Source of the DNA: an uncultured virus (IMG/VR IMGVR_UViG_2541047342_000013)
Taxonomy: Duplodnaviria; Heunggongvirae; Uroviricota; Caudoviricetes
Reading direction: 5' to 3' (one strand)
Virus record (IMG/VR): IMGVR_UViG_2541047342_000013
Length of the DNA stretch: 20,000 nt
In this document: positions 1,399 to 19,506 of the stretch, piece after piece
How positions within the stretch are numbered: position 1 is the first letter of the stretch
How the letters are laid out: each line of letters begins with the position of its first letter
Notes under the pieces: generated by a model
What the model was told of the DNA's origin: nothing
The model's database searches: none
The model's input: only the letters and a program-made list of their open reading frames with translations
Made by a program: the position numbers and the translations under genes

Positions 1399-1426
1399 TA
1401 GTGGATATAGTATAAATATCAATGAA

Positions 1427-1455
1427 AAAAGATTCTATAATTAGAATGCTTTTTA
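1427..1455 (+). terminator. Probable intrinsic terminator after the antitoxin gene (TAAT loop)
   Basis: AAAAG-ATTCTA-TAAT-TAGAAT-G-CTTTTT hairpin with T tract. Confidence 0.55.
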
Positions 1456-1483
1456 TTTCTCTGTATTGTCAACTATGACAATA

Positions 1484-1513
1484 TTGACTATTGTGACCAT
1501 ATTAGGGTATAAT
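1484..1513 (+). promoter_or_regulatory. SigA promoter of antitoxin RNA 1
   Basis: TTGACT-18 bp-TATAAT, conserved in the second copy. Confidence 0.75.
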
Positions 1514-1519
1514 AGTAAT

Positions 1520-1642
1520 ATAATAAAGACATAAAAAAAGAGACTACAACTATTTGTGCTAGGGTGTCTCTTCATAAATAAGCGAAGTGTTAATTAGAGG
1601 AAGAATCACCCGAATGGCAGTTCAGGTGATTCTTAATTTTTT
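1520..1642 (+). ncRNA. Type I antitoxin antisense RNA 1 (ends approximate)
   Basis: Promoter at 1484-1513; terminator AAGAATCACC(1601-1610)/GGTGATTCTT(1625-1634) followed by AATTTTTT; overlaps the 3' part of the convergent toxin ORF. Confidence 0.75.
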
Positions 1643-1769
1643 GCAACGTTTTCTTAAACTCATCTATTTCTTTAAAAAGTCTATTCAAATTCTGAACCAA
1701 CTTAATCAAACTGATTATTATAGTTGAAAGAAATGTTATTATCGTTAGCAAACAAATTAAATATTTCAT
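1590..1769 (-). CDS. Type I toxin 1, 59 aa (MKYLICLLTIITFLSTIIISLIKLVQNLNRLFKEIDEFKKTLQKIKNHLNCHSGDSSSN)
   Basis: Translated by hand (below the ORF-track cutoff). RBS GGAGGTG; N-terminal hydrophobic helix with a charged tail; own promoter; convergent sRNA. Confidence 0.82.
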   Translation of the reverse strand: MKYLICLLTIITFLSTIIISLIKLVQNLNRLFKEIDEFKKTLQKIKNHLNCHSGDSSSN

Positions 1770-1861
1770 AATATCATATCACCTCCCATCTTGATATGAC
1801 ATGGAAGGCTTATGTAAATGAAGATTCACCCTAATAGTTTTTTTATGTAGTCTCTAAAAAT

Positions 1862-1890
1862 ATTATACCATAAATTACCAATATGTTAAA
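1862..1890 (-). promoter_or_regulatory. Extended -10 promoter of toxin 1
   Basis: Minus strand TTTAAC-17 bp-TATAAT with TGn extension; predicted start near 1855; conserved in the second copy. Confidence 0.7.
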
Positions 1891-1993
1891 TTTAATATTA
1901 TATTGTCTACAATTGTAAAAGAATATTGTGTTCTAAGAAGTTATTCTATTAATAATATAGCTTTTTTATTTTTCAATGAAGATAATGACAACA

Positions 1994-2023
1994 TTGACTA
2001 TTTTGATAATATTGGAGTATAAT
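1994..2023 (+). promoter_or_regulatory. SigA promoter of antitoxin RNA 2
   Basis: TTGACT-18 bp-TATAAT. Confidence 0.75.
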
Positions 2024-2029
2024 AGTAAT

Positions 2030-2183
2030 ATAAATGATATAAATTTATATCATAGGGACATAAAAAAGAGACTACAAACTATTTGCTGTAGGGTGTAGTT
2101 CTTAAAGTTAACAATAAAAAGAATAGATTTATGTATTACTTTCAGAATCACTAGACCCGCCAGTCTGGTGATTCTTTAGTTTC
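2030..2183 (+). ncRNA. Type I antitoxin antisense RNA 2 (ends approximate)
   Basis: Promoter at 1994-2023; terminator AGAATCACTAGAC(2144-2156)/GTCTGGTGATTCT(2163-2175) followed by TTAGTTT; overlaps the 3' end of toxin 2. Confidence 0.75.
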
Positions 2184-2290
2184 CTAATAGATGCTTTCAA
2201 GTTTAAGATTGCATCTATTAGCTTTGTCAAATGATTGATTATTCTTGTAATCATAATTATCATTATTAAAAACAAAACTAAGTACTCCAT
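2129..2290 (-). CDS. Type I toxin 2, 53 aa (MEYLVLFLIMIIMITRIINHLTKLIDAILNLKASIRKLKNHQTGGSSDSESNT)
   Basis: Translated by hand. RBS GAAAGGGGGTG; hydrophobic N-terminus; same KNH...DS tail as toxin 1, encoded across the antitoxin terminator. Confidence 0.82.
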   Translation of the reverse strand: MEYLVLFLIMIIMITRIINHLTKLIDAILNLKASIRKLKNHQTGGSSDSESNT

Positions 2291-2368
2291 AGTCTCACCC
2301 CCTTTCTTACTGGGGATTTTAACTAAAGAGCCATCACCCTAATAGTCTAAACTGTAGTCTCTAAAAAT

Positions 2369-2397
2369 ATTATACCATATTTTTCCATAATGTTAAA
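2369..2397 (-). promoter_or_regulatory. Extended -10 promoter of toxin 2
   Basis: Minus strand TTTAAC-17 bp-TATAAT with TGn extension; paralogous to 1862-1890. Confidence 0.7.
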
Positions 2398-2409
2398 TTT
2401 AATATTATA

Positions 2410-2439
2410 TTGACGACAGGAGTAGAATAAAGATATAAT
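2410..2439 (+). promoter_or_regulatory. SigA-like promoter
   Basis: TTGACG-18 bp-TATAAT. Confidence 0.6.
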
Positions 2440-2490
2440 ACAGGTAACAGAAAATTTAAAAATTTTACACAAGAATTACTACTTATCTAT

Positions 2491-2516
2491 GCCACCTTAA
2501 ACAAGTGGCTTTTTTC
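2491..2516 (+). terminator. Intrinsic terminator about 70 nt downstream of the 2410 promoter
   Basis: GCCAC-CTTAAACAA-GTGGC-TTTTTT. Confidence 0.65.
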
Positions 2517-2549
2517 ATACTCTGGTATCTATTTAAGGAGGTGTTACAA

Positions 2550-2705
2550 ATGATAAATAATATAGAAGATTGTAAGCTTCTTATTGAGACAGAAATAAGA
2601 ATGAAAGGTATAGATGAAAAAGAACTAATATCTCAAAACGAAATTCTGAAAGACCTAAATATTAATGAAAAAGACCTTGAAGATATTGAAGTGAATTTTG
2701 AATAA
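2550..2705 (+). CDS. 51-aa acidic protein resembling the C-terminal toxin-binding half of Firmicute Phd/YefM-type antitoxins
   Basis: Strong RBS AAGGAGGTG before ATG 2550 (better than the track start at 2505). Sequence MINNIEDCKLLIETEIRMKGIDEKELISQNEILKDLNINEKDLEDIEVNFE. Family resemblance recalled by eye only. Confidence 0.6.
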   Translation: MINNIEDCKLLIETEIRMKGIDEKELISQNEILKDLNINEKDLEDIEVNFE

Positions 2706-2785
2706 TGAAATGATTTATAATATACCTATTTAAAACATGTATTAATTGATATCAGTAATAGTGATTTTTTATTTATTGAATCTGT

Positions 2786-2813
2786 TTTACAAAAAACGTA
2801 TTTATGATATAAT
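2786..2813 (+). promoter_or_regulatory. Extended -10 promoter of a putative orphan antitoxin RNA
   Basis: TTTACA-16 bp-TATAAT with TGn extension. Confidence 0.65.
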
Positions 2814-2819
2814 AAAAGT

Positions 2820-2924
2820 AAGGAATTTAATCTACTTAATACAAAGAGTGATTGTTTCCTTAAAGTTAATTAAAAAATCAATTTATCTTTTGAAACCACT
2901 CTTATTGGCGTTTGAGTGTTTTTT
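2820..2924 (+). ncRNA. Putative type I antitoxin RNA 3 (orphan; ends approximate)
   Basis: Promoter at 2786-2813; hairpin CACTC(2897-2901)/GAGTG(2914-2918) followed by T6; antisense to a decayed toxin ORF. Confidence 0.6.
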
Positions 2925-2971: not shown

Positions 2972-2987
2972 ATTAATAAAATATTTT

Positions 2988-3013
2988 AGCTCATCTTAAT
3001 TGATGGGCTTTTC
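2988..3013 (+). terminator. Hairpin with TTAATT loop before the tail gene RBS
   Basis: AGCTCATC-TTAATT-GATGGGCT-TTT. Confidence 0.6.
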
Positions 3014-3036
3014 TAATACAAAGAAGGTGATAAAAT

Positions 3037-4752
3037 ATGCATTTTAATGTGAATCTTAAACAGATAAAATCTGATTACACATTAACCATTCACAAGATGA
3101 ACAAATCATTTTTAGGTCAAATCCCAATCAACTTTTTAAATTCTATAAAGCGTGAGCTTGGTGGAGTAGATGAAATACAACTGACCATTCCAAAATATAT
3201 TACAGATAGATTTTTATTTAATAAAATAATAAATCCCATTTTTGAAGAAGTAAAAGAAGAACGTCTTATTTGTCTTAATAATAAAGAATATTTTGTAGTT
3301 AAGAATGTTGTGACTACAGACGATAAATTAAAAGTAGTAACAGCTAAATCTAAAGAAGTTAAACTAGGAAAAATTGATGTGAATATTGAGGACTATGGAT
3401 TACAGATGTTTACCAAAGATGAAGAAGCATCTATTATATCTCTTAATGATTATTTAAAACAAGAGACAGGCTGGAAACTTGGTTATGTGGATGATTCAAT
3501 TGCTTATGAAACTGATAGTGAAGGTAATAAGAGAGAAAAAGTAAGATGGCAAGAGAGTATTAATTCTAATTGGTTAGATTATTTCAATAATGAACTAAAA
3601 GAACAATTTGAGTGTATAGCTGATTTTGACACTTATAATAATTTAGTTAATTTGTATCATATAGACAGTTTTGGAGATAACATTCAGTTATATTTATCTC
3701 ATGATAACTACATAAAATCACTTGAAAGAACTACAAATAGTGATGATATAGTAACTAGACTGAAGCTTGAAGGTAGTGAAGATATGAATGTAATAGGAGC
3801 TACAGTTACAGGATATGATTACATTGAGAATTATTCTTATTTCTTAGACAATAAAGAAATGAGTGAAGAACTTAGTAAAGCTATAAAGAAATATCAAGAA
3901 ATGAATGAAATAAGAGAGCCAATTTGGAGAGAATTAATAGATACAAAGCTTAAGAAACAAAGAGAACGTGATAGTAAAAGCAACGAATGGCAAATGGTAA
4001 TAGAAATGATAAGTAAGAAAAAAGATATAAAAAAGACATATGATAATCCACAACATAAAGATGAAGTAAATTCAGCTAAAATAGCAGTAGAGATAAGTGA
4101 ACTAGAAGATAAAAAAGTAATATTGGATGTTCAAATAAAACATTTAGAAGAAGAAATAGCTAAGTTAAATGAAAGTATAAAAGATATAAATATTCTTTGT
4201 AAGAGGGAGACTTCAACTGATGAGGATGGATATTTAATATTTAATGAGGTTCTATTAGATGAATTAAATGAGTTCCTCTACTATGACACTTATACAAATG
4301 ATGCTTTTTTAAAAGTTGAAGATTTAATAGCAGAAGGTAAAAGGCAATTAAGTTTGAAATGTATTCCAACACGAGAATGGACTCTGGATGTTATAAACTT
4401 CTTAGATAGAATTATAGATATTAATTTTAGACAACATTGGAAGGGAGATTTAAGTCTGGGAGATATTATAGTGTTACATAGCAAAGAATCTAAAGAAGAA
4501 GAATTAGTATATTTTACATCTTTTACCCAGAATTTAAAAAATGGAAAATTAGATACTTTAGAATTAACTTTAAGTAATAAAAAAATAAAAGAAGATGACA
4601 AAAGGACTATAGCTGATTATTTAACTAAAGCTGAACATGCAACGAGAACATTAAACTCTAAAAGACATTTATTCATTCAGCAACAGAAGAAAAGAATTAA
4701 CCTACCAGATGAATATATTCCTAAGAAAAATATACAAAAGGAGCTGATGTAA
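3037..4752 (+). CDS. Phage tail tip/spike (Tal-like, prophage endopeptidase-tail family) protein
   Basis: RBS AAGAAGGTG; motifs 'YIKSLERTTNSDDIVTRLKLEG', 'GYDYIENYSYF', 'LSLGDII'; position in the tail module. Confidence 0.8.
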   Translation: MHFNVNLKQIKSDYTLTIHKMNKSFLGQIPINFLNSIKRELGGVDEIQLTIPKYITDRFLFNKIINPIFEEVKEERLICLNNKEYFVVKNVVTTDDKLKVVTAKSKEVKLGKIDVNIEDYGLQMFTKDEEASIISLNDYLKQETGWKLGYVDDSIAYETDSEGNKREKVRWQESINSNWLDYFNNELKEQFECIADFDTYNNLVNLYHIDSFGDNIQLYLSHDNYIKSLERTTNSDDIVTRLKLEGSEDMNVIGATVTGYDYIENYSYFLDNKEMSEELSKAIKKYQEMNEIREPIWRELIDTKLKKQRERDSKSNEWQMVIEMISKKKDIKKTYDNPQHKDEVNSAKIAVEISELEDKKVILDVQIKHLEEEIAKLNESIKDINILCKRETSTDEDGYLIFNEVLLDELNEFLYYDTYTNDAFLKVEDLIAEGKRQLSLKCIPTREWTLDVINFLDRIIDINFRQHWKGDLSLGDIIVLHSKESKEEELVYFTSFTQNLKNGKLDTLELTLSNKKIKEDDKRTIADYLTKAEHATRTLNSKRHLFIQQQKKRINLPDEYIPKKNIQKELM

Positions 4753-4753
4753 A

Positions 4754-6682
4754 TTGATATTAGATAATTCACCAGCAGATTCATGGATTAGAATTACTGG
4801 AGTAATTGTTACCTACAATAATACACTTTATCAAGTAGTAGATACAGAGACAAATAAAAAATATATATACTGGGATGCTGATAATCCAGGAACATTAAAA
4901 GTTTCTAATGTAAGATTACCAGAGGGAAACACACAATTTTTAGTAGTTGTAAATGACAATGGAAAACACACAGAAGTTCCTATAAATTCTTCTATTTTTG
5001 ATATTTCATTTGATGGTAATTCAAGAAAAAATACAGAAGAACAGATTTGGGGATTATATGAGACTGATAAAAAGCATAATGAAAAGTTTGTAGTTATTGA
5101 AAAAGATATAGATGGAATACATCAAACAGTTTTAGAAGTACAAGAAGATGCATCTCATATAAAAGAAAATATGTCTCTTATAGACCAAAGAGCTGAAAAT
5201 GTAAATATATTAGTAAAAGAAGTTACTAAAAATTTTGGTCAGTCACAAGAAAATATAACCTTAAGAGAAAATATAAATAAAGCTATAATTAAGTTAAATG
5301 CAGATTTAGGTACATTTAGTTCTAATATGTCTAATTATTTTAATGATAATGAGATTACAGATGAAGAAAAAGAAAAGATTGATATTGAACTTAATTTATT
5401 AGATACAGATAAAGCGAGTTTATATGCAGAGTTACAAAAACTTATTGATAAAACTACTGGAGTAGACTTAGTTGCAATAAACACTTCAAAAACAGCATTG
5501 GATACAGCAAGTACCAATCTAAACTCTATAATCAATTCAGTTATTTCAGATAGTATAATTACACCTTCAGACAGAATTTTAGCTATAAATGCAAATGCTC
5601 AATATAACTTAAAGATAAATGAACTTAAAAATACAGTGGATAGAATTTATATAACAGGTATGGGTGGAAGTATATCAGAAGAATTTTCTCAAATAAATGC
5701 TACAGCTAAAGAGATAAAATTAGAAGTGGCTAGAGTAGATGGTGTGACTAAAACTAATGCTGCTGAAATTAAATTAACCAAAGACGATATAACAATGATA
5801 GTTACAAGAAATGGAAGTGGTTCAATTGTAGGAATTAAACCTGATAAAATTGAATTTGGATTTAATGATATATCAAATTATGTAGAGATAAGCAGGAGTG
5901 GTCTAACAGTAAATCAAGGAGCTATAGCATGTGATATATTAACTACTCCATCTGGCCATGAACCAATAATCAGATTATTTGGAAGTAGCAGGTCTGGATT
6001 TGCAATAGATGCAAGAAGGTCTGATGGTTCTAGTCAAGCATCAGCTATAAGATTAAAATATGATAGCAATAATTATTTTTGGGTAGGATATGATACTGCT
6101 GAGATTTATGTTGATGGAGAAGAACACTTTATTGTTGAAAGAGATGATACTTTTGTAAGATGTGGAGGAGCTACATTTACATTTACAAATGGAGATAGTT
6201 TAGGTATAGGATATTCATTTTATCCAGAGCGTTCATCAACTGATTTAGGTTGTGATGATTATAAATGGAGGTATTTATATTCACGTTCTACTCTAAGTGA
6301 ATCTGACAAAAAGTTTAAAGAGAATATAGTATACATAAAAGATATTAAGAATAGAACTCGTTCAAGTATAACGCCAACACCATTTTTAGATTTTATAAAA
6401 GATGAATTTAAACCAGCAACATTTGATTATATTGTATCAGCAGAAAAAGATAGAACAATTGCAGATAGTCAAATAGGGTTTATAGCTAATGATTTTAAAG
6501 ATAGTTATGTTGGAAAAACATTTCTATATGATTATGGAGAAGAAAATGGATTAATGTTTAGCCCATCTGGTTATACAACTGTTGTAGCAACTGCACTTCA
6601 AGAGGAAATACAAAAAAGAGAAGAATTGGAAATGATAGTTAGTGAATTAAATGAGAAAATTAATAATTTAGGAGGATATTAA
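4754..6682 (+). CDS. Tail fibre/spike with C-terminal intramolecular chaperone (peptidase S74) domain
   Basis: TTG start after AAGGAG; coiled coil, then beta-rich region, then the 'SDKKFKENI...IGFIAND...ALQEEI' autocleavage/chaperone signature from about 6302. Confidence 0.8.
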   Translation: MILDNSPADSWIRITGVIVTYNNTLYQVVDTETNKKYIYWDADNPGTLKVSNVRLPEGNTQFLVVVNDNGKHTEVPINSSIFDISFDGNSRKNTEEQIWGLYETDKKHNEKFVVIEKDIDGIHQTVLEVQEDASHIKENMSLIDQRAENVNILVKEVTKNFGQSQENITLRENINKAIIKLNADLGTFSSNMSNYFNDNEITDEEKEKIDIELNLLDTDKASLYAELQKLIDKTTGVDLVAINTSKTALDTASTNLNSIINSVISDSIITPSDRILAINANAQYNLKINELKNTVDRIYITGMGGSISEEFSQINATAKEIKLEVARVDGVTKTNAAEIKLTKDDITMIVTRNGSGSIVGIKPDKIEFGFNDISNYVEISRSGLTVNQGAIACDILTTPSGHEPIIRLFGSSRSGFAIDARRSDGSSQASAIRLKYDSNNYFWVGYDTAEIYVDGEEHFIVERDDTFVRCGGATFTFTNGDSLGIGYSFYPERSSTDLGCDDYKWRYLYSRSTLSESDKKFKENIVYIKDIKNRTRSSITPTPFLDFIKDEFKPATFDYIVSAEKDRTIADSQIGFIANDFKDSYVGKTFLYDYGEENGLMFSPSGYTTVVATALQEEIQKREELEMIVSELNEKINNLGGY

Positions 6683-6683
6683 T

Positions 6684-6839
6684 ATGGAAGTAAATTTACA
6701 AAAAGCATATACAGTAGCATTTGAAGAGATAAAAAGTTTATATAATGAACTAATACTTTATAAAGCACTTAACATGCAACAACAAGAAGAAATTGAGAAC
6801 TTGAAAAAAGAACTAGAAGAACAAAATAAAGAACAATAG
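6684..6839 (+). CDS. Small coiled-coil phage protein, 51 aa (MEVNLQKAYTVAFEEIKSLYNELILYKALNMQQQEEIENLKKELEEQNKEQ)
   Basis: Not in the ORF track; RBS AGGAGG; fills the gap between neighbouring genes exactly. Confidence 0.8.
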   Translation: MEVNLQKAYTVAFEEIKSLYNELILYKALNMQQQEEIENLKKELEEQNKEQ

Positions 6840-6850
6840 GATGTGATACT

Positions 6851-8920
6851 TTGAAAAATTATGAAATAAAGAATCATACCATAGAAGTAGATTTTAGTAA
6901 TTATAGAATAAATAAAAGGTTACTAGACTATTTTATTTATAATGAAAATGATGTTAAAACAGCTTATATTGAAGCAATATTGAAAAATAAAGATGAAATA
7001 ATAGATTTATCTGAATATGATAGAGTTTTAGTTAGCATTACAAAAAGTGATGGACAAAAGGTTAATGGTGAATGTGAAGTTGTAGATGCAGAAAATGGTG
7101 TTGTAGAGATAGAACTTAGTCGACAAGCACTTGCAAGTGTTGGTATAAATACATTTCAACTATCCCTTGTGAAAGAGGGAACTCTACTTAATACTACAAA
7201 TCTTTATTATAGAGTTGAAGAGGGTATGATTAATGATGATGATATCACCTCAACTGATGAATATGGAGTATTATTGGTAATAATAGCCCAAGCAGAAGAG
7301 ATTATAAAAAACAATAAAGAGTTAACTAAAAGAGTTGAACAACTTGAAATAACTATCTTAGGAAATGAAGAAGTTAGGGATAAAGCAGAGCAGATTAGGA
7401 TTTATAATGAAGATATAAGAAACATACAAGAAGAAGAAAGAGAGTTTAATGAGTTAACACGTCAAAACCAAGAAGCAAATCGTGAAGAATCCATTCAGAA
7501 TATGCAAATCCAAGTTGATGATAAACTTACTGATTGTCAACTCCAATTAGATGAAATGATAGATGCCAAGTCTGAAGAAATAGACAATATTGTTGATGAT
7601 AAAATGCTTGATGTCCAAGCTCAAACAGATAAGAAATTTCAGGACTTAGATACTAGAGCTAATAATATTTTTGATTTATATGATAAGACATTTGAAGATA
7701 AACTTACAGACAACCAAGAACAAATTGATTATAAACTTGATGAAGTAAATCAAGCTATATCTAATGTAGAAGATTGTATTGATGAAAGTACTACAAAATT
7801 AGATACAAAGATAAAAGAAATAGATGACAAAATAGTTGAAGTAAATACTGCTAAGACAGATATGACAACAACTGTATCTAACAAAATAACTGAATTTGAA
7901 AATAGATTTAGTGAATTAGAAAGTCTTGATGCTAGAGGCGAGTTAATACAAGCTAGAGAAACTATTGATGGAAATGTAAAGGACACTTTAAAGGATAGAT
8001 TAACATATGATTTTGAGAAAGTTAATGAGAAAATTGCTGAGATGACTTCTGCTGCAACTAATGTAGCTTTTAGTAAATCTTATGTTGAATCGGATTGGGT
8101 TGCTGATGGAGAATATTTTAAACTTATAGTTAATCATAATTTAGTTACAGAAAATATATTTGTAGCAATATTAGATGAAGCAACTAAGAAAAGTATGACT
8201 AATTCTTATACTATAGTAGATTCTAATACGATAGAAATATTTAATGAAAGTAACATAGATGTAAAAGTAACTGTTGTAAATGGTAATACAAATAAAGAAG
8301 TTATACAAGCTACAATAAATGATAATATAACAACACTAGATAGTACTTACTCTAGTGTTAAAATTGATGCAAAATTTGATGAGAGTCTAACTAAGATAAA
8401 TGAAAATAAAAGTAATATAGCTACTAATTTAGAGAAGATAAATTTAATGCAAACTAAACTTGGTTCGAGTGAATTAAGTACAGTATCTAAAAATATATCA
8501 GATGCAGTAAATGAATTAGATGCTAGTGTTAAAGTTTTGCAAGAGGGTGGAAATTTAGGACAACAATTAGATAGTTTAAAAGCCAAGTATGATGCTCTAT
8601 CTGATAAAGTCTTAGATATATTAATTTATTTAGAATTAGAATCTGGTGCAGTGGATGAAGTAGGTCAATGGTATGATAATTTAACTGATTCAAAAGGTAT
8701 TTTATCAATTGAAGGTCTAAGATTAGACACAGACAGAAGAAGAATATTTGGTAGTGAAGGGAATGTTATTTTTAATAAAATAGACATTCCTTTTTCTTGT
8801 TATAAAGTGAAATACATACATGAATTAGATGATAACTTTATAGAGACCATTTCAAACACAAGTACAAATGCTGGAGCTAATAGTATAGAACTTGAAAAAT
8901 TTTCTTATGAAGTTAAATAG
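6851..8920 (+). CDS. BppU-type baseplate upper protein (N-terminal DUF2479-like domain, long coiled coil)
   Basis: N-terminal 'YNENDVKTAYIE...ITKSDGQKV...VVDAENGVVEIEL...G' resembles BppU_N; extensive heptad region; directly upstream of the RBP. Confidence 0.75.
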   Translation: MKNYEIKNHTIEVDFSNYRINKRLLDYFIYNENDVKTAYIEAILKNKDEIIDLSEYDRVLVSITKSDGQKVNGECEVVDAENGVVEIELSRQALASVGINTFQLSLVKEGTLLNTTNLYYRVEEGMINDDDITSTDEYGVLLVIIAQAEEIIKNNKELTKRVEQLEITILGNEEVRDKAEQIRIYNEDIRNIQEEEREFNELTRQNQEANREESIQNMQIQVDDKLTDCQLQLDEMIDAKSEEIDNIVDDKMLDVQAQTDKKFQDLDTRANNIFDLYDKTFEDKLTDNQEQIDYKLDEVNQAISNVEDCIDESTTKLDTKIKEIDDKIVEVNTAKTDMTTTVSNKITEFENRFSELESLDARGELIQARETIDGNVKDTLKDRLTYDFEKVNEKIAEMTSAATNVAFSKSYVESDWVADGEYFKLIVNHNLVTENIFVAILDEATKKSMTNSYTIVDSNTIEIFNESNIDVKVTVVNGNTNKEVIQATINDNITTLDSTYSSVKIDAKFDESLTKINENKSNIATNLEKINLMQTKLGSSELSTVSKNISDAVNELDASVKVLQEGGNLGQQLDSLKAKYDALSDKVLDILIYLELESGAVDEVGQWYDNLTDSKGILSIEGLRLDTDRRRIFGSEGNVIFNKIDIPFSCYKVKYIHELDDNFIETISNTSTNAGANSIELEKFSYEVK

Positions 8921-8935
8921 GAAAGGAATGATTTA

Positions 8936-11900: not shown

Positions 11901-13423
11901 GTGATGGTTCTGTAAATGAAATTACTAAAATAGAAGGACATTACCTTTATAGATTTGACACTTTGAATAATTATATATTAAACAATAATTTTAATCTGAT
12001 AAATAACAAATATATAATACCATCACGAAGTGATATAAATTATAAAAGCGTTTTAGGCTCTGTATATAAAGAAAATTATGATATAGATAATGATAGAATA
12101 GAATTACAAGATAACATAAAAGAATTTTGGATGTCAAAGACTCATTCATTGATTGTAAATACAAGTGGAGAGTTATTTGGATGTGGAGAGAATATATATG
12201 GTCAATTATTAAATCCAAGAACAACAACTTCGTTGACAAGCTTTACTAAACTAAATTTTGCAGATATAAGACAAGCTTCATGTGGCGTTGGATTCTCATA
12301 TTTTCTGAAAAATGATGGTACTCTGTATTCAGCAGGATTAAATTCAGAATACCAACTAGGGCTAGGTCACAACAACGAGGTAAATGAATTACAAAGAGTA
12401 AATATATCTAATGTAAAGAAAGTAATGTGTGATGATAAGTTTACTTTAGTATTATTAAATGATAACTCTGTATGGGGGCAAGGACTTAATAGATTTGGTA
12501 ATTTTGGATTAGGCCAAGCTTCTGCAAATACTATAATAAAAACATTTACTAAACTAGATGTAGATGTGGAAGATGTAGAGATAGGTGGAGATTATATCTC
12601 TTTTAGAAAATTAGATAAATCACTTTGGATTTGCGGTAAAATAAGAGATTGTTACAATATGAACTCTAATAATCCATATATATTTAATAAAGTTCAAATA
12701 CCAGCAGAATTTAATAATGATTTACTTTGGTTAGACGCTGGAAGAGATGAAACTTTATTTATGAATTACCAAGCACCTACAACAAAACCATCAATAGAAA
12801 TATCAGAGAAAACTATATCTGGTATAAAATTAAAAGTTAATGATTCAAATGATGAAATTGATAAGATTGAGATGTATTTAAACAATGAGTTAATACATTC
12901 AAAAAATGAATTTATCAATAATTTTGTGCTGTTCACTATTCCATTAGAAAAACTAAATCTTGGTATAAATAATATATATTTTAAAGCTAATACTTCATTT
13001 GGAGACAATATGTATCTAGGGGCAACAATTAATAAAGAGAATAATTCTATAAATATTTCAGAAGGAGCTAATCTATTTATTAAGAATAAAAAGTATAACA
13101 TAAATTCTTTAACAAATAGTGCAGATGGTAAACTTGTAATAACATTAGATAGAGCATTAGAAGATAATATAAGCGTAGGAGATATAATTTATCAACTTAT
13201 AAATCAACTAAAAGTTCAAGTTAAAACAAATAACACAGGTATGCACAAAGATATGAATTTATTAGAAATGAAAAAAGTTGACACAGGGTATCAAGAGGTT
13301 TATGAGTTAGAAGAAAAAGGAATGACACAAGTAGAACCTAAAATTATAGTTGAAAAAGGCGATAATTGGACAGCGATAAAAAGACCATCTATGATATTCA
13401 GTATAGATGAGGAAACACTTTAA
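8936..13423 (+). CDS. RCC1/BLIP-II-repeat beta-propeller protein, probable receptor-binding protein
   Basis: About 22 repeats of ~49 aa (G.N..GQLGLGD..NRN.FTKV.IDNVK.I.CG..HTFI.K.DG); lies after BppU and before a CD1375-like gene. Confidence 0.85.
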   Translation: MKENKILQRGRYLDTDIYFDEFNKDFDNYDFVDIVISPGSGYTFGIKIDRSIWACGYNVYGQLGLGDTTNRNVFTKVNIDNVKKISSYSHNTFILKNDGTIYSCGLNERGALGLGDTTNRNTFTKVNIDNVKDVICGGLHTFIIKNDGTLYSCGMNTSGQLGLGDTNDKDVFTKVNIDNIKEIICGSSHTFIIKNDGSIWSCGLNNYGQLGFSDKVNRNTFTKVDIDNVKKIACGGTTTFVLKNDNTLWCVGENNKGQLGLGDTTNRNTFTKVNIDNVKDVTCSYQGIFIILTDGSVLSTGYNYFGQLGLGDKVDKKIFTKVNVDNVKKIFSGNTHTFIMKEDNKLLFAGSNNFGQLGCQHFLNNSDNFTTFTEYKNNDYIGFSKSVNLNGDTYLLKDNGEYLLINRNDKIVCGRNFTYILKNDGTIWGAGNNGNGQLGLGDNTHRNVFTRVNIDNVKEIICGNNHVFIIKSDGSVWGTGQNNNGELGLGDNSHRNTFTRLDINNVKKVVCNNCTYVIKNDDTIWVTGYNEHGALGLGDNTHRKVFTKVNIDNVKEIICGMYHTFIIKNDNTVWACGLNNYGQLGLGDNFDKLIFTKINIENIKNGISSGDSTFLLKNDGTLYSCGMNTSGQLGLGDTTNRNVFTKVNIELKNNFTEYANNYKIVLGDTSFILKNDNTLWGSGSSSYGQLGLGDTAGKRVFTRMNVENIKDVVCGKMHVVVLKNDGTVWNSGNNSNGQLGLGDTTNRNVFTKVDIDNVKKVICGWNQTVILKNDNTVWSTGLNSNGQLGLGDTTNRNVFTKVDIDNVKEIICGNNQTFIQKEDGSIWSTGNNSYGELGLGDIAQRNIFTKVDIDNVKKIACGQAYTFIIKNDGTLYSCGFNYSGQLGLGDTTNRNVFTKVNIDNVKEVICASNHTFILKEDGSIWSTGNNSYSQLCLGDNTQRTTFTKVDIDNIKEIACSDSVTFVIKNDGAIFSVGYNGYGQLGLGVSDGSVNEITKIEGHYLYRFDTLNNYILNNNFNLINNKYIIPSRSDINYKSVLGSVYKENYDIDNDRIELQDNIKEFWMSKTHSLIVNTSGELFGCGENIYGQLLNPRTTTSLTSFTKLNFADIRQASCGVGFSYFLKNDGTLYSAGLNSEYQLGLGHNNEVNELQRVNISNVKKVMCDDKFTLVLLNDNSVWGQGLNRFGNFGLGQASANTIIKTFTKLDVDVEDVEIGGDYISFRKLDKSLWICGKIRDCYNMNSNNPYIFNKVQIPAEFNNDLLWLDAGRDETLFMNYQAPTTKPSIEISEKTISGIKLKVNDSNDEIDKIEMYLNNELIHSKNEFINNFVLFTIPLEKLNLGINNIYFKANTSFGDNMYLGATINKENNSINISEGANLFIKNKKYNINSLTNSADGKLVITLDRALEDNISVGDIIYQLINQLKVQVKTNNTGMHKDMNLLEMKKVDTGYQEVYELEEKGMTQVEPKIIVEKGDNWTAIKRPSMIFSIDEETL
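9116..11900 (+). repeat. 147-bp coding tandem repeats with long identical blocks
   Basis: GGTCAATTAGGTTTAGGTGATACTACTAATAGAAATGTATTTACTAAAGTTAATATAGA is identical at about 9116, 10826 and 11585. 67-bp identity between 9368-9434 and 10784-10850. Confidence 0.9.
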
Positions 13424-13434
13424 GAGGTGATTAA

Positions 13435-13758
13435 ATGCTAAATATAAATGAAGAAAAAATTGAAAAGCTCAAACAAAAAAAGGCTTTAAATAATTTAAAT
13501 ACAAGTCAAGAAACGCAAGATAATGACATAACAGATTTAATGTTAGCAACTGCTGAAATATGTGAAATGGTATTAAGTAGTCAACAGACATCTACTATGT
13601 CATTAAAAAATATAAAATTAAATGAAGGAGGAAGTAGCATGGCAGCAATTTATGTAGGATTGATAGAAAGAGGTTTGAAAACAATTGAACAAGTACCTAT
13701 AAAATACCGAGAAGAAGTAAGAAAAATGTGTGAAGCACTAGAGATTTCATTATCATAG
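13435..13758 (+). CDS. RBP assembly helper with C-terminal CD1375-family domain
   Basis: RBS GAGGTG; C-terminal 'MAAIYVGLIERGLKTIEQVPIKYREEV' resembles the CD1375 family; internal RBS and ATG at 13639. Confidence 0.72.
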   Translation: MLNINEEKIEKLKQKKALNNLNTSQETQDNDITDLMLATAEICEMVLSSQQTSTMSLKNIKLNEGGSSMAAIYVGLIERGLKTIEQVPIKYREEVRKMCEALEISLS

Positions 13759-13780
13759 AACTATAAGAGTTCTTTTTTTA
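13757..13780 (+). terminator. Intrinsic terminator closing RBP cassette 1
   Basis: AGAACT-ATAAG-AGTTCT-TTTTTT. Confidence 0.7.
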
Positions 13781-13836
13781 TGTTCAAAATGGAGAGTTAC
13801 TAATGTAGCTCTCTAAATAAAGAAGAAGGTGATAAA

Positions 13837-15790
13837 TTGTTAAATGAAGAGGTAGTAAAAAAATTAAAGAATGTACCTAGTAACACTAATAGTGAAATTG
13901 GAAAAGTTAATACAAATATAGAAACTGCTAAAACAGAGTTGAATACTAAAATAGGAAATACAATTCTGCTTAATACGACAGATAAAACAAATCTTGTAAA
14001 TTCAGTGAATGAATTAGTAGATAAGCAAAACGATATAGAAAATCTCGAGGAAATTGACAATATAAAATGTAATACTGATACAGGAGAATATACTATAGAA
14101 AATAGTAAAAAAGGTTATCTAACTAATTTCCATATAGAAGGAAAGACACTAGTTAATTTGGCTAATCCAAATAACATAACTATAACAGAAGGTTTACGAT
14201 ATTTAAATCCATTTAGATATATTGAAAAAAGGAAAACAATACACTTTTATTAATTTAAGTAATAAAGAAATATATTATTTCCATAATAATGTAATCAAAT
14301 TTAAAATGAATCCAAATAGTAAAACTTTATACACTATAGACATAGATATAACTGATGCTAATTGTCTTTGTGTCGCTCATAGTATAAAAGGATGGGGAGA
14401 GACTGATGCAGATAAACAAGAGTTTACTAAATCTGTAATGATTTTAGAAGGTGATTATACTAGTGAAAATATTTCTTACTTTGAAAGATTACAAAGTGTT
14501 GGTCAAGGAGATAATACAGAGCTTCTAACATTTAAAAATAGCGAAAATAATTTATTTGATAAAAATGGAAATTTTAGAGATAATTATATTCTGCAATATG
14601 TGAATGGCGAGGAACTTATTTCCGAAACTAGTAATCATAAATACACATTAGACTATATAGAAATAGAAGCAGACACAGGGTATACTTTTTATAATTGTAG
14701 TAGAAATATTTGTTGGTATGATATAAATAAAAGTTTCATACCAGCATCATTAAACGAAAGAATAATAGGAGATAAAGATATTTTTTATATTGCTAGAAGC
14801 CCTAAAAATGCAAAGTATCTAAGAGTTACTATAATAAAAGATTTACATGATAATGGGAATAAAACAATTATAACTAAAGGAAATAAATATGATAAAAAGA
14901 CAATTTTATATACATTAAGAAGTTTACCAAATGGAGTAAAAGATGAAATAGTTTATAAAAATAATAAATATTACTTAATAAAAAGATGTGAGGAACATAC
15001 TTATAATGATATTGGAAATCTTAATTTATCACATGTATATGATAATACTCTGCAATTTATGGGAACATTAACTCCTCGAGCTGTTGTAGATAGTTTAGAC
15101 ACAGCATATGTTTTATGTAATAATTTAAATGGAAAAAGTAGAAATGATTTTAACAATAATGACACAGAGGGATGCTCAACTACTGGTAGTGGTGATATAG
15201 CATTTAAAATATTAAAAAGTAAACTTACTACACAAGATGGAAATGGGTTTAGTGAATGGATAAAAAATAATCTAGTAACTATCATCTATCAACTTGCAAA
15301 ACCACAAGAAATTGAATTAACATCACTAAATTTAGAACAATATAATAATCAAACTAAATTTATTTGCAACACAGGTATTGTGATACCAGATGTTAGTTTT
15401 GAAAGTACACAAAATTTAGGAAGTCATATAGAAGTTATCAGAAATAATATAAAAAAATACAATGTTAGAACTGATTTTCCATTTTCAATAAACTTTCTTA
15501 ATGGGTGGCAGCCATATCTTGGATATGCTAGTTCTGTTGGAAACTATTGCACAAATAATAACTTTGTAACAATTAATGCAACTATTAATGGAGGTGTTAC
15601 AACGGCAGGTACTATCATTGGAAAGATACCTTCAAAATATGCACCTCGTAAAGGCATAATAGTAATATTTCGAACAACAGATGGAAAGTATTATAACGGA
15701 ATCATCCGTACAAATGGAGAAATTGAGATATATTATAATGATATAACTTATCGTAGTTGGTTGTATTTATATGTAAACTATTTAATTTAG
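13837..15790 (+). pseudogene. Second tail fibre/RBP gene split by a 1-nt frameshift (ORFs 13837-14253 and 14222-15790)
   Basis: ORF1 has an RBS and tail-fibre motifs ('LNTTDKTNLVNSVNEL', 'IEGKTLVNL'). ORF2 lacks an RBS and continues with fibre motifs ('LRSLPNGVKDEI', 'IIYQLAKP'). Removing one base at 14212-14214 or 14225-14230 fuses them into about 650 aa. Confidence 0.7.
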
Positions 15791-15804
15791 AAAGGAAAAA
15801 TAAG

Positions 15805-16125
15805 ATGGATATAGAAAAGAAAATAGAAATTTTAATAGAATATGGATTTGAGAATGATTTAAATAATATAGAGAATTACTTTATTGCAGAGGGTAAAAAA
15901 ATATTTACTCCAGTGATAAAAAACGGAGAGCTAATTAAAACAGGAGAACAGGTTTATAATGAGTGGATAGAATTACAAAATAATCCACCTAAACCAAGCA
16001 TAGAGGAAATAAATGCGGATAAAATTACAATTTTAATAGAAAATCAAAAGCAACAAGACAGTTTATTAGTAGATAATGCTTATAGAATTGCTATGTTAGA
16101 ACTTAACACAAATAACGTGTTATAA
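15805..16125 (+). CDS. Tail fibre assembly-type protein, 106 aa
   Basis: RBS GAAAGGA before ATG 15805 (preferred to 15757); C-terminal 'QDSLLVDNAYRIAMLEL' motif typical of genes that follow fibre genes. Confidence 0.65.
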   Translation: MDIEKKIEILIEYGFENDLNNIENYFIAEGKKIFTPVIKNGELIKTGEQVYNEWIELQNNPPKPSIEEINADKITILIENQKQQDSLLVDNAYRIAMLELNTNNVL

Positions 16126-16150
16126 AACTATAAAAAATGGAGGAAACAAC

Positions 16151-16321
16151 ATGTATAATATTTTAAAAAGAATGATTGAACAAAAGAATTTTGAAACTAA
16201 AGAGGAATTACAAACTAAACTTGATGTATTTTACGCTATGAATAGGATAAAGGAAGATGAATACACAGAGTTAACAAATCTATTAAATAAAGAAGATACA
16301 CTAGTAGAACCAAAAATATAA
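16151..16321 (+). CDS. Small XkdX-like phage protein, 56 aa (MYNILKRMIEQKNFETKEELQTKLDVFYAMNRIKEDEYTELTNLLNKEDTLVEPKI)
   Basis: Not in the ORF track; RBS GGAGG; 'I..DEY.EL' motif; usual position between fibre and lysis genes. Confidence 0.78.
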   Translation: MYNILKRMIEQKNFETKEELQTKLDVFYAMNRIKEDEYTELTNLLNKEDTLVEPKI

Positions 16322-16336
16322 AAGGTTCTTTTTTTA
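16306..16336 (+). terminator. Intrinsic terminator closing RBP cassette 2
   Basis: AGAACC...GGTTCT-TTTTTT. Confidence 0.6.
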
Positions 16337-16395
16337 TGTCAATTTTAGAGAATTGATTAATTTCAATTCTCTTTTAATTAAAAGGAGTGGTAATT

Positions 16396-17211
16396 TTGAA
16401 TATAAAAACATTGACTGCCCATGCAGGTCATAATCCAGATGGTAAATTAGGTTCTGGAGCAGTAGGAAATATAAAAGAATCTACAGAAGCAAGAAATGTA
16501 CTAAAAGAGTTAATACCTTTAGCTCAAAAAGAATGTAAAGTTTATGATACTACATGCAATAATGGAACTTCTCAAAGTGATATATTGAATAAGATTATAA
16601 ATAAATGTAATTCATATAACACAGATTTAAATGTAAGTATCCATTTTAACTCAGGTGGAGGTAGAGGTGTAGAAGTTTTAGTATATAATTTAAATGACAA
16701 AGAAACTGTTGAAATAGCATCAAGAATATGTAAAAAAATAACTGAAACTTATCATGCAAAAGGTGATAAAGATTTTAAAAATCGTGGAGTTAAGGAAAAG
16801 AAAACTCTAGCATTTTTAAGAAGAACGAAGGCAAAGTCAATTTTAGTTGAGTGCTGTTTTGTAGACACATCTGATACTAAAAAATATAATGCTAAAGATA
16901 TGGCCATAGACATTTATGAAGGAATATTTAATAAGTCTATAGCTGGTAAACCACAAGATAACAAAGTGAAATATGCAATAGTTTATGAGGGTGATGTAGA
17001 TAAAGTTATAGCTCAATTAATGGCCATGAATTATAAGGCTAATGAAGTCTCTGTGTGTGAGTTGAAAAATTATGTTCCTGGACATTGTGAAAACCTATAT
17101 GTGATTGGTGGAGCATCCAACAAAATTAAAACTAGTGAGAGATTTACTAAATTACAAGGTGATGATAGATGGGCTACACTTCATAAAGTGTTAGATTTTA
17201 TAGGCAAGTAG
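16396..17211 (+). CDS. Endolysin, N-acetylmuramoyl-L-alanine amidase (Amidase_3) with CD27L-like C-terminal domain
   Basis: 'AGH...E...SIHFNS...ILVECCFVD' zinc amidase motifs; C-terminal 'IVYEGDVDKV...YVPG...NLYVIGG...GDDRWATL..VLDFI'. TTG 16396 is properly spaced from RBS AAAGGAG. Confidence 0.92.
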   Translation: MNIKTLTAHAGHNPDGKLGSGAVGNIKESTEARNVLKELIPLAQKECKVYDTTCNNGTSQSDILNKIINKCNSYNTDLNVSIHFNSGGGRGVEVLVYNLNDKETVEIASRICKKITETYHAKGDKDFKNRGVKEKKTLAFLRRTKAKSILVECCFVDTSDTKKYNAKDMAIDIYEGIFNKSIAGKPQDNKVKYAIVYEGDVDKVIAQLMAMNYKANEVSVCELKNYVPGHCENLYVIGGASNKIKTSERFTKLQGDDRWATLHKVLDFIGK

Positions 17212-17222
17212 GAGGTAATGAA

Positions 17223-17840
17223 TTGAATATATTAGATAAATCAACAGCTACATTAGAACAAGTCTTTTCGTATTTAGACACATTAAAAAATAACTCTAAT
17301 CCACCACATTTTTTATGCAGAGCTATAGTACCAATTATATATAAAGAAGCAGAGAAAAAAGGTGTAAATCCAGTTATTGCAATTGCTCAAGCATTTGTAG
17401 AAACTGGATATTTTAATTTTGGTAGAGTTTTAAATCCTTCTTATTGCAATGTGTGTGGTCTTAAAGGAAACAAAGGCGGAGGAGATTTAGACCCAACAGC
17501 TCATACAAGATTTAATTGTTGGGAGGATGGAGTATCAGCATTTATAGACCATCTAGCTTTATATGCTGGGGCTAAAGGTTATCCAAAATATAGCGAATTA
17601 GTTGGTAAAACTGAATATAAAGTAAATGGAACTACATTAGACCCTAGACATTTTTCGTATCTACATGGAGAGGCTAAAACAGTTGAAAGTTTATCAGGTA
17701 AATGGTGTCCAGATATTAGTTATGGTCAAAACATAATAAATATATGCAATAAGATAAGTTCAATGAAGGTAGAAAATAATGATATAAAATTAGAGCAAAT
17801 AAAAACTAAAGTAAAAGAATTAAATGAGATTCTTGGATAG
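17223..17840 (+). CDS. Glucosaminidase-domain (GH73-like) peptidoglycan hydrolase
   Basis: 'KGVNPVIAIAQAFVETG', 'N.CGLK', 'F.CWEDGV.AF..HL..YA', 'L.GKW.PD..YG'. Confidence 0.85.
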   Translation: MNILDKSTATLEQVFSYLDTLKNNSNPPHFLCRAIVPIIYKEAEKKGVNPVIAIAQAFVETGYFNFGRVLNPSYCNVCGLKGNKGGGDLDPTAHTRFNCWEDGVSAFIDHLALYAGAKGYPKYSELVGKTEYKVNGTTLDPRHFSYLHGEAKTVESLSGKWCPDISYGQNIINICNKISSMKVENNDIKLEQIKTKVKELNEILG

Positions 17841-17851
17841 GAGGAAATCAT

Positions 17852-18103
17852 ATGGATATAATGCAATTTATACCTGAAAATTTAATAATGTTAATAGGTG
17901 GGCTTTACATATTAGGAACATTTATAAAAGAATCTAATATTAAAAATAAATACATACCTTTTATATTGTTAGTTATAGCAATGATAAGCAGTTGTTTGTT
18001 TATGAAAGAGCTGTCAATAGAAGCTGTCTTTGAAGGTATTTTATGTTGGGGTACATCCATAGGAATAAATCAAATACAAGTACAAAACAGAAAGGATAAG
18101 TAG
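17852..18103 (+). CDS. Phage holin (holin_5_2-like)
   Basis: 83 aa with multiple hydrophobic helices; 'LYILG.FIK...IKNKYIPFIL...GIL...IGINQI' pattern; basic C-terminus. Confidence 0.82.
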   Translation: MDIMQFIPENLIMLIGGLYILGTFIKESNIKNKYIPFILLVIAMISSCLFMKELSIEAVFEGILCWGTSIGINQIQVQNRKDK

Positions 18104-18415
18104 ATGTTATCAAAGGAAATAATTGAGCTATTAAGCCAGTATGGATTTACAGCTATATTATTAACTTTATTGATGATATGGCTTGGAAAATATTTAGAAA
18201 AGAATAGACAACTAGAACAAGATGATAGAAAAAAGGAAAGAGCTTATTTTTCAAGAGAAATTAAAGAGCAGAGAACTTTATTTGGTAATACAATAGATAA
18301 GTTTGATGATAAATTAGATAAATTTGCTGAAGCATTAAATACTAACAACAGCAGACTTGAAAGAGTTGAAACAGACATAACAAAGATTAAAGATAAATTA
18401 GAGACTAGAGATTAA
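18104..18415 (+). CDS. BhlA/UviB-like holin-like protein
   Basis: Single N-terminal TM segment ('LSQYGFTAILLTLLMIWL') followed by a coiled coil ending 'RLERVETDITKIKDKL'. Confidence 0.65.
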   Translation: MLSKEIIELLSQYGFTAILLTLLMIWLGKYLEKNRQLEQDDRKKERAYFSREIKEQRTLFGNTIDKFDDKLDKFAEALNTNNSRLERVETDITKIKDKLETRD

Positions 18416-18432
18416 TTTCTCTAGTCTTTTTT
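18402..18432 (+). terminator. Intrinsic terminator with TTAATT loop after the lysis module
   Basis: AGACTAGAGA-TTAATT-TCTCTAGTCT-TTTTT. Confidence 0.8.
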
Positions 18433-18449
18433 ATAAGGAAGTGAAGTAT

Positions 18450-19385
18450 TTGGCAAAACAACGTAGTAAAAGAATAAGTATAAATGGAGAACCAAATCCA
18501 GAGAATATTAAATTATGGAAGCAATACAAAAGAGCAAAACAAATAGCTGGGAAAAGTGAAAAAACAATATATAATTATGAATGTGATATAATGCAATTTT
18601 TTAAGTTTTTAAATATAGAATGTTTTGATGCACTATTAACAGATATAAATGAAGAAGAAATAGAAGCTTATATAGGTTATTGTATGGAACAGGGGAATAA
18701 TGAAAAAAGAATTAGACGTAGAATAAGTTCAATTTCATCCTTACTATCATTTTTAAAGAAGAAGAGGAAAATCACTGACAATTGGTGCGAAATGATAGAA
18801 AGACCAGGAACAGGCGAAGAAGTTCAGAAAAGAACCTTTTTAACTGAAGAACAGTTAAGCAAATTAAAAGAAAAGCTTTCAGAGCAAGACAACTTACAGT
18901 TAGAAGTTTATATAAATTTAGGATTGGCTACAATGGCTAGAAGTAATGAGATAAGTCAATTTAGATGGGACAATATAGATTTAGATAATAGATGGATTCA
19001 TGGTATTACAGCTAAAGGTGGAGTTTCAAGAGATTTTAGATTTTCAGAAGAAGTCCAGCATCTATTAATAGAATGGAAGGATTATTTATCTCAAAATAAT
19101 ATAGATTATCCATATATATTCTTTACAAGATATGGAGGCAAATACAATCAAGTCAATTCAAATGTCTTAAGTTCATGGGTTAAAAAAGCTTTCAGGTTAA
19201 TTGGTATAGAAGGTGGATATAATCATGACCTTAGACATAGTATGTCTAATCTTTTAAAAGACAGAGGAGTTCCAATAACTACAGTTTCAAAATTGCTTGG
19301 CCACAGTGGGGTTGATGTAACTATAAATCACTACACAATAGAAAATAAAAATAAATTAGCTGAGGAATATGATAAGTTTATGTAA
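18450..19385 (+). CDS. Tyrosine recombinase (XerC/D-like)
   Basis: Catalytic set R (MARSNE), K (AKGG), HxxR (HDLRH), H (LGH), Y (NHY); SAM-like core-binding N-domain. TTG 18450 fits RBS AAGGAAGTG; GTG 18441 is the alternative start. Confidence 0.93.
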   Translation: MAKQRSKRISINGEPNPENIKLWKQYKRAKQIAGKSEKTIYNYECDIMQFFKFLNIECFDALLTDINEEEIEAYIGYCMEQGNNEKRIRRRISSISSLLSFLKKKRKITDNWCEMIERPGTGEEVQKRTFLTEEQLSKLKEKLSEQDNLQLEVYINLGLATMARSNEISQFRWDNIDLDNRWIHGITAKGGVSRDFRFSEEVQHLLIEWKDYLSQNNIDYPYIFFTRYGGKYNQVNSNVLSSWVKKAFRLIGIEGGYNHDLRHSMSNLLKDRGVPITTVSKLLGHSGVDVTINHYTIENKNKLAEEYDKFM

Positions 19386-19404
19386 ATTGAAAGGAAGTGA
19401 TATA

Positions 19405-19446
19405 ATGGCATGTAAAGGTCGTAAAAAAGGTAAGAAAAAGAGATAG
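19405..19446 (+). CDS. Putative 13-aa basic micropeptide MACKGRKKGKKKR
   Basis: RBS GAAAGGAAGTG properly spaced before ATG; sits between the recombinase stop and the terminator. Confidence 0.55.
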   Translation: MACKGRKKGKKKR

Positions 19447-19451
19447 ATAAT

Positions 19452-19506
19452 AAGCCCTCTAGGGATTACTCTTAATTGAGTTTTCTTTAGAGGGCTTTAT
19501 TTTTTT
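19452..19506 (+). terminator. Long intrinsic terminator with TTAATT loop
   Basis: AAGCCCTCTAGGGATTACTC-TTAATT-GAGTTTTCTTTAGAGGGCTT-TATTTTTTT. Confidence 0.85.

Follow-up and report, generated by a model that had tools for sequence, protein, structure and literature searches.

The window analysed here is a 20,000-nucleotide stretch of DNA from an uncultured virus of the Caudoviricetes (IMG/VR record IMGVR_UViG_2541047342_000013). By sequence comparison it is the tail and lysis region of a phiCD211-like Clostridioides difficile phage; large parts of it match the 130-kb C. difficile phages of this type at 92–97%. It encodes a Panacea-type antitoxin, Tal and other tail proteins, an RCC1-repeat fibre, a second fibre, an amidase, a glucosaminidase, holins and a tyrosine recombinase (Table 1). 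Six hairpins, referred to below as 1432, 2988, 13792, 16347, 18402 and 19452, lie at gene boundaries of this region. A sequence-only reading had proposed them as a phage RNA regulatory element with unrelated stems and a fixed UAAU loop, and all six are present where it had placed them. For genome-wide counts, phiCD211 (NC_029048.2) was used as the whole-genome stand-in.

Structure of the six hairpins

The hairpins are found after stop codons and before ribosome-binding sites (RBSs), and four of them stand just before an RBS, as had been described. RNAfold energies are −2.9 kcal/mol for 1432, −10.9 for 2988, −12.1 for 13792, −11.7 for 16347, −14.4 for 18402 and −28.6 for 19452; with flanks included, the folding z-scores in the same order are −2.1, −2.5, −5.2, −4.1, −3.2 and −6.3. 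The stem of 2988 covaries among relatives, with 98.6% of cells paired, a covariation score matched by one of 500 shuffles, and every slid control below 49%. The hairpins are therefore real RNA structures. Hairpin 1432 is probably a chance member of the set, because it is weak (−7.5 kcal/mol when extended), closed by an A-U pair and situated in an accessory module.

A U-rich tract lies 3' of the stem in five hairpins and is missing, as had been noted, from 13792, where an upstream U-tract in the flank can pair with the RBS region. Hairpins 2988, 16347 and 18402 were listed by a terminator scan, the last on the minus strand. The separate terminators said to precede 13792 and 16347 are present but weak (Table 1). 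The TAA stop codon of the holin-like gene (18413–18415) sits inside the loop of 18402. An Rfam search returned no family at the gathering score (best E 0.096, 36.6 bits versus 65). A further short TAAT-loop stem occurs on the plus strand at 8051–8067, within the gene at 6851–8920, and has 12 bases in common with hairpin 13792.

Table 1. Hairpins, genes and signals of the window.
Feature	Position	Strand	Basis or remark
Panacea/SocA-type antitoxin gene	385-1398		Upstream of hairpin 1432
Weak bidirectional terminator-like hairpin, A-U closed TAAT loop, after the antitoxin gene (1432)	1425..1454	+	Folding; only 3 comparison rows have the segment
8-bp hairpin, UUAAUU loop, U-tract, terminator-like, 27 nt upstream of the Tal/minor tail gene at 3037 (2988)	2988..3009	+	Folding, stem covariation
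RBS GAAGGTGA of the Tal/minor tail gene	3023-3030	+	
Genes for tail, fibre (RCC1-repeat), lysis and tyrosine recombinase in a phiCD211-like phage, punctuated by the hairpins	3037..19385	+	Gene annotation/homology
Weak 6-bp terminator-like hairpin, T7 tract, overlapping the stop codon of 13435-13758	13757..13780	+	−4.1 kcal/mol; retained in relatives
11-bp hairpin, C(UAAU)G, no U-tract, ahead of the second fibre gene RBS at 13825-13832 (13792)	13790..13815	+	Folding; near-invariant stem
Weak hairpin resembling a terminator, followed by a T-tract, where 16151-16321 ends	16307..16335	+	−4.8 kcal/mol
10-bp hairpin, UUAAUU loop, U-tract, ahead of the amidase RBS (AAGGAG 16382-16387; likely start TTG 16396) (16347)	16347..16372	+	
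12-bp hairpin, U-tract, overlapping the holin-like gene 18104-18415 at its 3' end, ahead of the recombinase RBS 18435-18444 (18402)	18400..18429	+	
Conserved unannotated lysine-rich open reading frame, 13 codons, own RBS, immediately before the last hairpin	19405..19446	+	Comparison with relatives
Long terminator closing the late region: 14 bp, 2x2 U-U internal loop, 4 bp, hexaloop (19452)	19452..19497	+	

Loop bias in the phage lineage and in other viruses

Ungapped intergenic hairpins of −7 kcal/mol or lower were counted once each and oriented by their U-tracts. In the window, four of the nine hairpins that qualify have a TAAT core, and TAAT forms the core of 2.6% of intergenic 6-mers. Loops centred on TAAT or ATTA account for 9/53 intergenic hairpins in phiCD211 versus 2/279 in the host control, which covered 900 kb of a 4.17-Mb C. 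difficile chromosome (p=1.5e-6). UAAU loops are thus not equally frequent in host hairpins, and the enrichment that had been suggested as a check exceeds both the host and an AT-matched background: among A/T-only cores the counts are 9/22 for phiCD211 and 2/56 for the host (p=1e-4). Five phiCD211 relatives gave 5/63, 6/58, 8/61, 6/54 and 6/48 (non-independent genomes, two scanned over 100 kb only), and five small C. difficile phages, used as a control, 1/101. In six phages, again non-independent, TTAATT was oriented on the RNA strand 22 times and its inversion AATTAA six times. Further motif sites in phiCD211 are 6890, 8775, 20745 (after the major tail gene) and 64711; about half of its late-region terminators are without the motif. 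More distant relatives show little or no bias in TAAT plus ATTA cores (SPbeta 1/69, Sundance 0/61, Lactococcus phage 949 2/58, G119 3/50, G121 3/26, G120 0/11 and G004 2/41).

The loop bias in this phage lineage exceeds chance. TAAT is common, the motif was chosen after the lineage had been seen, and hairpin 1432 is probably an accidental occurrence; TTAATT as a plain word is not over-represented (64 found, 86 expected). The AT-matched comparison contradicts an origin by chance in AT-rich DNA, as does an independent test in IMG/VR in which, among the matches listed, TTAATT made up 11 of 42 A/T-only centres (p=5e-8 against 1/32). Chance is thereby largely refuted, and it is the least probable of the explanations considered here.

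The IMG/VR scan used generic terminator stems with a free six-base centre, four of which were the main stems. The matches listed comprise 368 loci; 51 two-way matches were dropped, and the remaining 317 fell into 210 flank clusters. Among these, CTTCGG was the most frequent centre (47), followed by TTAATT (11) and GGAAAC (7). TTAATT outnumbered AATTAA by 11 to 1 (p=0.006), and TTAANT accounted for 16 of the 28 U..U-closed centres. UUAAUU thus appears as a soft, virus-wide preference in phage terminator hairpins. A literature search that covered few of the subscription journals yielded no account of a UUAAUU/TTAATT loop preference in phage terminators. In one family of about 16 IMG/VR contigs (L424-L541), a conserved promoter-like stretch comes after a UUAAUU terminator and the upstream DNA varies, an arrangement like a PeSL cassette.

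Loop exchange at the same sites in relatives

Locus counts at 2988, 13792, 18402 and 19452 refer to pattern-matched loci, including repeats from close phages and excluding relatives with a different hairpin. At the 2988 site (31 loci) the loops are TTAATT in 17, ATTA in eight, ATTAAT in four, and TAAAAT and TTAACT in one each. The stem at 13792 is near-invariant, and its loop is the most variable of all (24 loci: TAAT 12, TCTT 5, AAAG 2, ATTA 2, TTTT 2, TAAC 1); this site had served as an argument against termination. Among 19 rows at 16347, five have TTAATT, one TTAATC, one CTAATC and two other loops on the same stem family, and ten have a different hairpin. TTAATT is present in all 22 sense-read loci at 18402, where its TAA is the stop codon in all four distinct gene ends. 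The 19452 site is divided between TTAATT (12) and TTAAAT (10) in 22 loci. At the terminator after the major tail gene, 24 loci with at least 70% protein identity comprise TTAATT 17, AAAA 5, TTTT 1 and TTGATT 1, and one relative has the exact inversion AATTAA; at 42–59% identity, the loops are others and the CCCTAC/CCCTAG stem and the T-tract are kept.

Replacement and inversion of loops occur even among phages with at least 95% tail-protein identity. In automatic orthologue families, where pairs are non-independent and some families imperfectly joined, the loop was unchanged in 16/30 comparisons for motif loops versus 23/54 for others (p=0.37). Exact inversions were found in both classes (2/30 motif and 4/54 non-motif comparisons) and probably reflect template switching between the arms. 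The claim of a fixed loop therefore stands within this genome and fails across relatives, where loops are replaced, shortened or inverted on kept stems. In phiCD211-like genomes generally, exact inversions on otherwise identical arms are common (TTAATT/AATTAA, ATATTA/TAATAT, TTATTT/AAATAA and TTAAAT/ATTTAA).

The occurrence of inversions in both motif and non-motif families (6/84 comparisons) would also be expected if no loop selection operated at all and a few ancestral terminator cassettes had spread by recombination, with template switching rewriting both arms and only flipping the loop, so that TTAATT/AATTAA would be long-lived. Inner stems with CTC/GAG and AGAGA/TCTCT are seen repeatedly, an ERF annealing protein is encoded by the phage, and when the four further phiCD211 sites are added the arms are slightly more alike than those of other phage hairpins (p 0.004–0.043). 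This ten-site excess is, however, marginal against host hairpins (p 0.048–0.20). The loop-proximal arms of the six window hairpins are no more similar than those of control hairpins (p 0.29–0.79), and the description of their stems as unrelated therefore holds. Common descent is also at odds with the RNA-side strand bias, both in the six phages and among the IMG/VR matches listed, and with the recurrence of the loop on generic stems of unrelated viruses. We consider such descent without loop selection quite unlikely.

A role in DNA was weighed as well, in which cruciform or palindromic sites with a 6-bp spacer would allow the neighbouring tyrosine recombinase, or host recombination, to exchange the modules for tail, fibre, lysin and recombinase, in the manner of attC, loxP, the hairpins of diversity-generating retroelements (DGRs) or PeSL cassettes. 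Homology to relatives often begins or ends near the hairpins (2971–2978, 16348, 16378–16380 and 19506–19512), different recombinase genes occupy the place between the same two hairpins, and inverted loops are tolerated. Breakpoints at gene boundaries are nevertheless expected in any modular phage, and others (8695, 13186, 14441 and 18586) lie away from hairpins. The arms have no recombinase-binding sequence in common of the kind that defines loxP, dif or attC, the U-tracts lie on the transcribed side, the stems retain G-U pairs, the motif also occurs after the major tail gene and in the replication arm, and no reverse transcriptase was found in the phiCD211 annotation or among 120 scanned proteins. 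A DNA function is accordingly very improbable.

Reading of the loop by a protein is likewise unlikely. A phage antiterminator or RNA-binding regulator, or a conserved factor of the host such as an endoribonuclease or a Nus protein, would recognise the loop and tune read-through or processing of the late transcript, with loss at single sites tolerated through redundancy. Enrichment at the level of the lineage, relative to both the host and the small C. difficile phages, fits this proposal, as do the position of most motif sites in the late region on the coding strand, the retention of UAA while loop positions 1, 5 and 6 vary, and the same loop after the same gene in the distant relative G004. 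A late region of about 50 kb with many terminators would presumably need read-through or internal promoters, and there is a precedent in T4, where the operator loop of gp43, UAAC, is a UAA loop read by a protein (PMC3014915). The loop replacements and inversions at 95% or higher tail-protein identity argue against it, together with the lack of a significant excess in retention of motif loops and the terminators, about half of those in the late region, that do without the motif. Sites resembling boxA, scored against the enterobacterial consensus with up to two mismatches, number 4 against 4.5 expected, and none adjoins a hairpin. A Pfam scan of 120 of the 193 phiCD211 features found no known antiterminator family, and likewise no RNA-binding regulator or reverse transcriptase family, which is weak evidence, as most of the proteins have no family and N-like peptides would escape. 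Finally, unrelated viruses favour the same loop; this counts against a phage protein peculiar to the lineage, though a host factor would be compatible with it. The suggestion of a boxB-like, strictly recognised, phage-specific loop is not supported: orthologous loops change, boxA does not exceed chance, and the loop is not confined to this phage.

Probable function of the hairpins and comparison with known elements

The explanation that we favour, and regard as probable, is that the hairpins are intrinsic terminators and stabilising hairpins with a soft loop preference, an ordinary punctuation of the late transcript in which the loop is not a required binding site. As terminators and stabilisers they belong to a known kind of element, with a stable stem-loop (weak at 1432), a U-tract in all but 13792, and a stem that is conserved or covarying around a free loop. 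Hairpins 2988, 16347, 18402 and 19452, and weakly 1432, would be intrinsic terminators. The processing or stabilising role proposed earlier is likely for 13792, as a non-terminator ahead of an RBS; at 13792, modulation of the RBS may also be considered. The internal terminators are probably leaky and may set gene dosage and protect mRNA 3' ends. Read-through at these sites may fix the proportions of tail, fibre and lysis proteins; operons of clostridia offer a parallel (PMC9045158, PMC10311766), with internal terminators determining stoichiometry (PMC9045158), and conserved terminators behind structural genes are reported to be common in phages (PMC1524935). The stem and U-tract, which are conserved, would carry the function. 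Template switching between the arms may invert or trim loops in this lineage, weak selection on the RNA strand may re-enrich UUAAUU over AAUUAA, and UUAAUU may be favoured in many unrelated phages as an A/U-only counterpart of cUUCGg.

Several observations weigh against this explanation. YUAAHY is kept while both arms change in the 16347 family, at phiCD211 6890 and at 19452. In G004, whose tail protein is 27% identical, the same gene is also followed by TTAATT, carried there by a different stem. The loop is thus a preference and no requirement, and these cases would fit loop selection stronger than is claimed here. TTAATT is unevenly distributed over the four main IMG/VR stems (5/90, 1/40, 5/55 and 0/25 among the matches listed), two of which have no excess, and a fifth stem gave five loci, two of them identical, with TTAATT in one of the four distinct. 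Similar patterns in Firmicutes genomes gave TTAATT in 0/41 matches (27/401 genomes) and 0/30 (22/121 genomes). These matches are also without any CTTCGG, and the genomes are not hosts of the IMG/VR contigs, so that only the C. difficile comparison is host-matched. A purely physical advantage of the loop should serve bacteria too, yet the bias is missing from the host (2/279) and from the Firmicutes genomes. In ViennaRNA, UUAAUU is favoured over AAUUAA by 0.6–0.9 kcal/mol, but not over other U..U loops; TTTTTT and TTAAAT have the same energy as TTAATT, so that stability alone does not single out UUAAUU. Melting of UUAAUU is within about 0.5 kcal/mol of the nearest-neighbour prediction, and it is less stable than GUAAUA (PMC13596323 Table 2).

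As for loop conformation, four of the six window loops have UNR at loop positions 2–4 between closing U..U bases, a match in sequence to the UNR U-turn consensus described, together with a U·U-closed U-turn hexaloop, in PMC4105743. UUAAUU and the variants UUAACU and UUAAAU may, by analogy with known structures, fold into compact hexaloops that are closed by a U·U pair and contain a UNR U-turn. A nuclear magnetic resonance structure of UUAAUU exists (PDB 1HS3, cited in 10.1101/354332), and the neomycin riboswitch loop UUUAAU is a U·U-closed U-turn hexaloop (PMC4105743). The phage loops have the same or a similar sequence, with the same UNR placement and U..U ends; the papers searched contain no description of such a hexaloop as a phage terminator loop. 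A related hexaloop, UUAAGU, was reportedly described by Zhang et al. in 2001.

The cUUCGg loop is extra-stable, and Tuerk et al. are said to have described hairpins with this loop between the cistrons of T4 in 1988. The phage hairpins resemble them in combining unrelated stems with one common loop between genes, and cUUCGg is the only centre commoner than TTAATT among the IMG/VR matches listed. In contrast to cUUCGg, UUAAUU melts near the nearest-neighbour prediction (PMC13596323). Intrinsic (Rho-independent) terminators, including the internal ones of clostridia (PMC9045158), share with the phage hairpins a stem of 8–14 bp, a U-tract, a position just after stop codons within a long operon, and conservation of stem and U-tract across relatives. 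The phage hairpins differ from them in their marked bias to one hexaloop, unlike the host chromosome sample, and in the lack of a U-tract at 13792. Selective RNA processing and stabilization stem-loops in the Ruminiclostridium cip-cel operon (PMC10311766) are intergenic, sometimes paired, and belong to a polycistronic message for a multi-subunit machine, an arrangement that the pairs 13757+13792 and 16307+16347 fit; there the stems are determinants of cleavage, which is hypothetical for the phage hairpins. PeSL cassettes of T4-like phages (PMC2839356) likewise place stem-loops at the junctions of gene-exchange modules, but the six hairpins have no common repeated promoter cassette. The DGR target hairpin has a variable stem and a sequence-dependent loop (PMC3240598); the loops at the phage sites vary, and the search for a reverse transcriptase in the phiCD211 annotation and the scanned proteins was negative.

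Lambdoid nut sites consist of boxA and boxB, are bound by the N protein, and occur once per operon near the promoter; the boxB hexaloop of phi21 is CUAACC. They share with the present hairpins a purine-rich loop, and that of phi21 resembles YUAAHY. The phage loop, however, sits on the terminators themselves and is dispensable, and neither boxA nor, among the 120 phiCD211 proteins scanned, an N homologue was found. A nut/boxB site is unlikely, since the loop is not strictly conserved at orthologous sites and no boxA is adjacent.

The phage was absent from four raw RNA runs of four studies. In runs that contained about 0.28 of the query words, the share equals the fibre-cassette part that small prophages also carry, and these matches probably derive from such prophages. 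In run X15, about 500 RNA reads match 10627–10665 of the RCC1 fibre gene with two mismatches and then continue into repeat-like sequence, which we take to resemble the C. difficile CRISPR repeat and hence to mark a host spacer against a related fibre gene.

Several neighbouring features were recorded. The small open reading frame (ORF) at 19405–19446 has a strong RBS and shows only small changes in C. difficile-group relatives, even where the upstream recombinase gene differs. At 18441–19385, two types of tyrosine recombinase, about 36–47% identical over the compared ends, alternate in relatives; with either type, the hairpin upstream is the same, and so are the small ORF and the terminator downstream. 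The ORFs at 13837–14253 and 14222–15790 overlap in different frames and resemble a single frameshifted or recombined fibre gene. Between 1500 and 2520 there are two similar modules, with promoter-like sites on the plus strand (1484–1513 and 1994–2023), small hydrophobic ORFs on the minus strand (1590–1769 and 2129–2290) and strong hairpins (1601–1634 and 2144–2175). A Pfam scan of the ORFs of these modules gave no match; the modules presumably resemble type I toxin-antitoxin pairs. In phiCD211 (L001), a two-hairpin leader lies at 8740–8860, ahead of the gene that precedes the terminase large subunit gene. Its hairpins are joined by a conserved AATCTCCCT box that is able to pair with the downstream RBS or the terminator arm, and the leader is a candidate control point of the late operon; it is also found in L044, L048, L100, L109, L157 and L094.

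As a regulatory element specific to phiCD211, the finding is weak: in their behaviour the hairpins resemble ordinary terminators and stabilisers. More weight falls on the wider result: unrelated phages repeatedly cap terminators with an RNA-strand UUAAUU, a loop that is not known as extra-stable and is not favoured by the sampled host chromosome. A bolder version, which we judge unlikely, ranks UUAAUU (UUAAHU) directly behind cUUCGg as a virus-wide terminator hexaloop that has gone unrecognised; it would owe its selection to a conserved factor, of host or phage, that reads it in lytic growth, tuning termination, processing or mRNA stability in a way that host terminators avoid. At the bench, the question raised is whether UUAAUU folds faster, resists or attracts a nuclease, or binds a factor during infection. 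If confirmed, UUAAUU would stand alongside UUCG and GNRA as a preferred hairpin loop of phages, and terminator prediction in AT-rich phages would improve.

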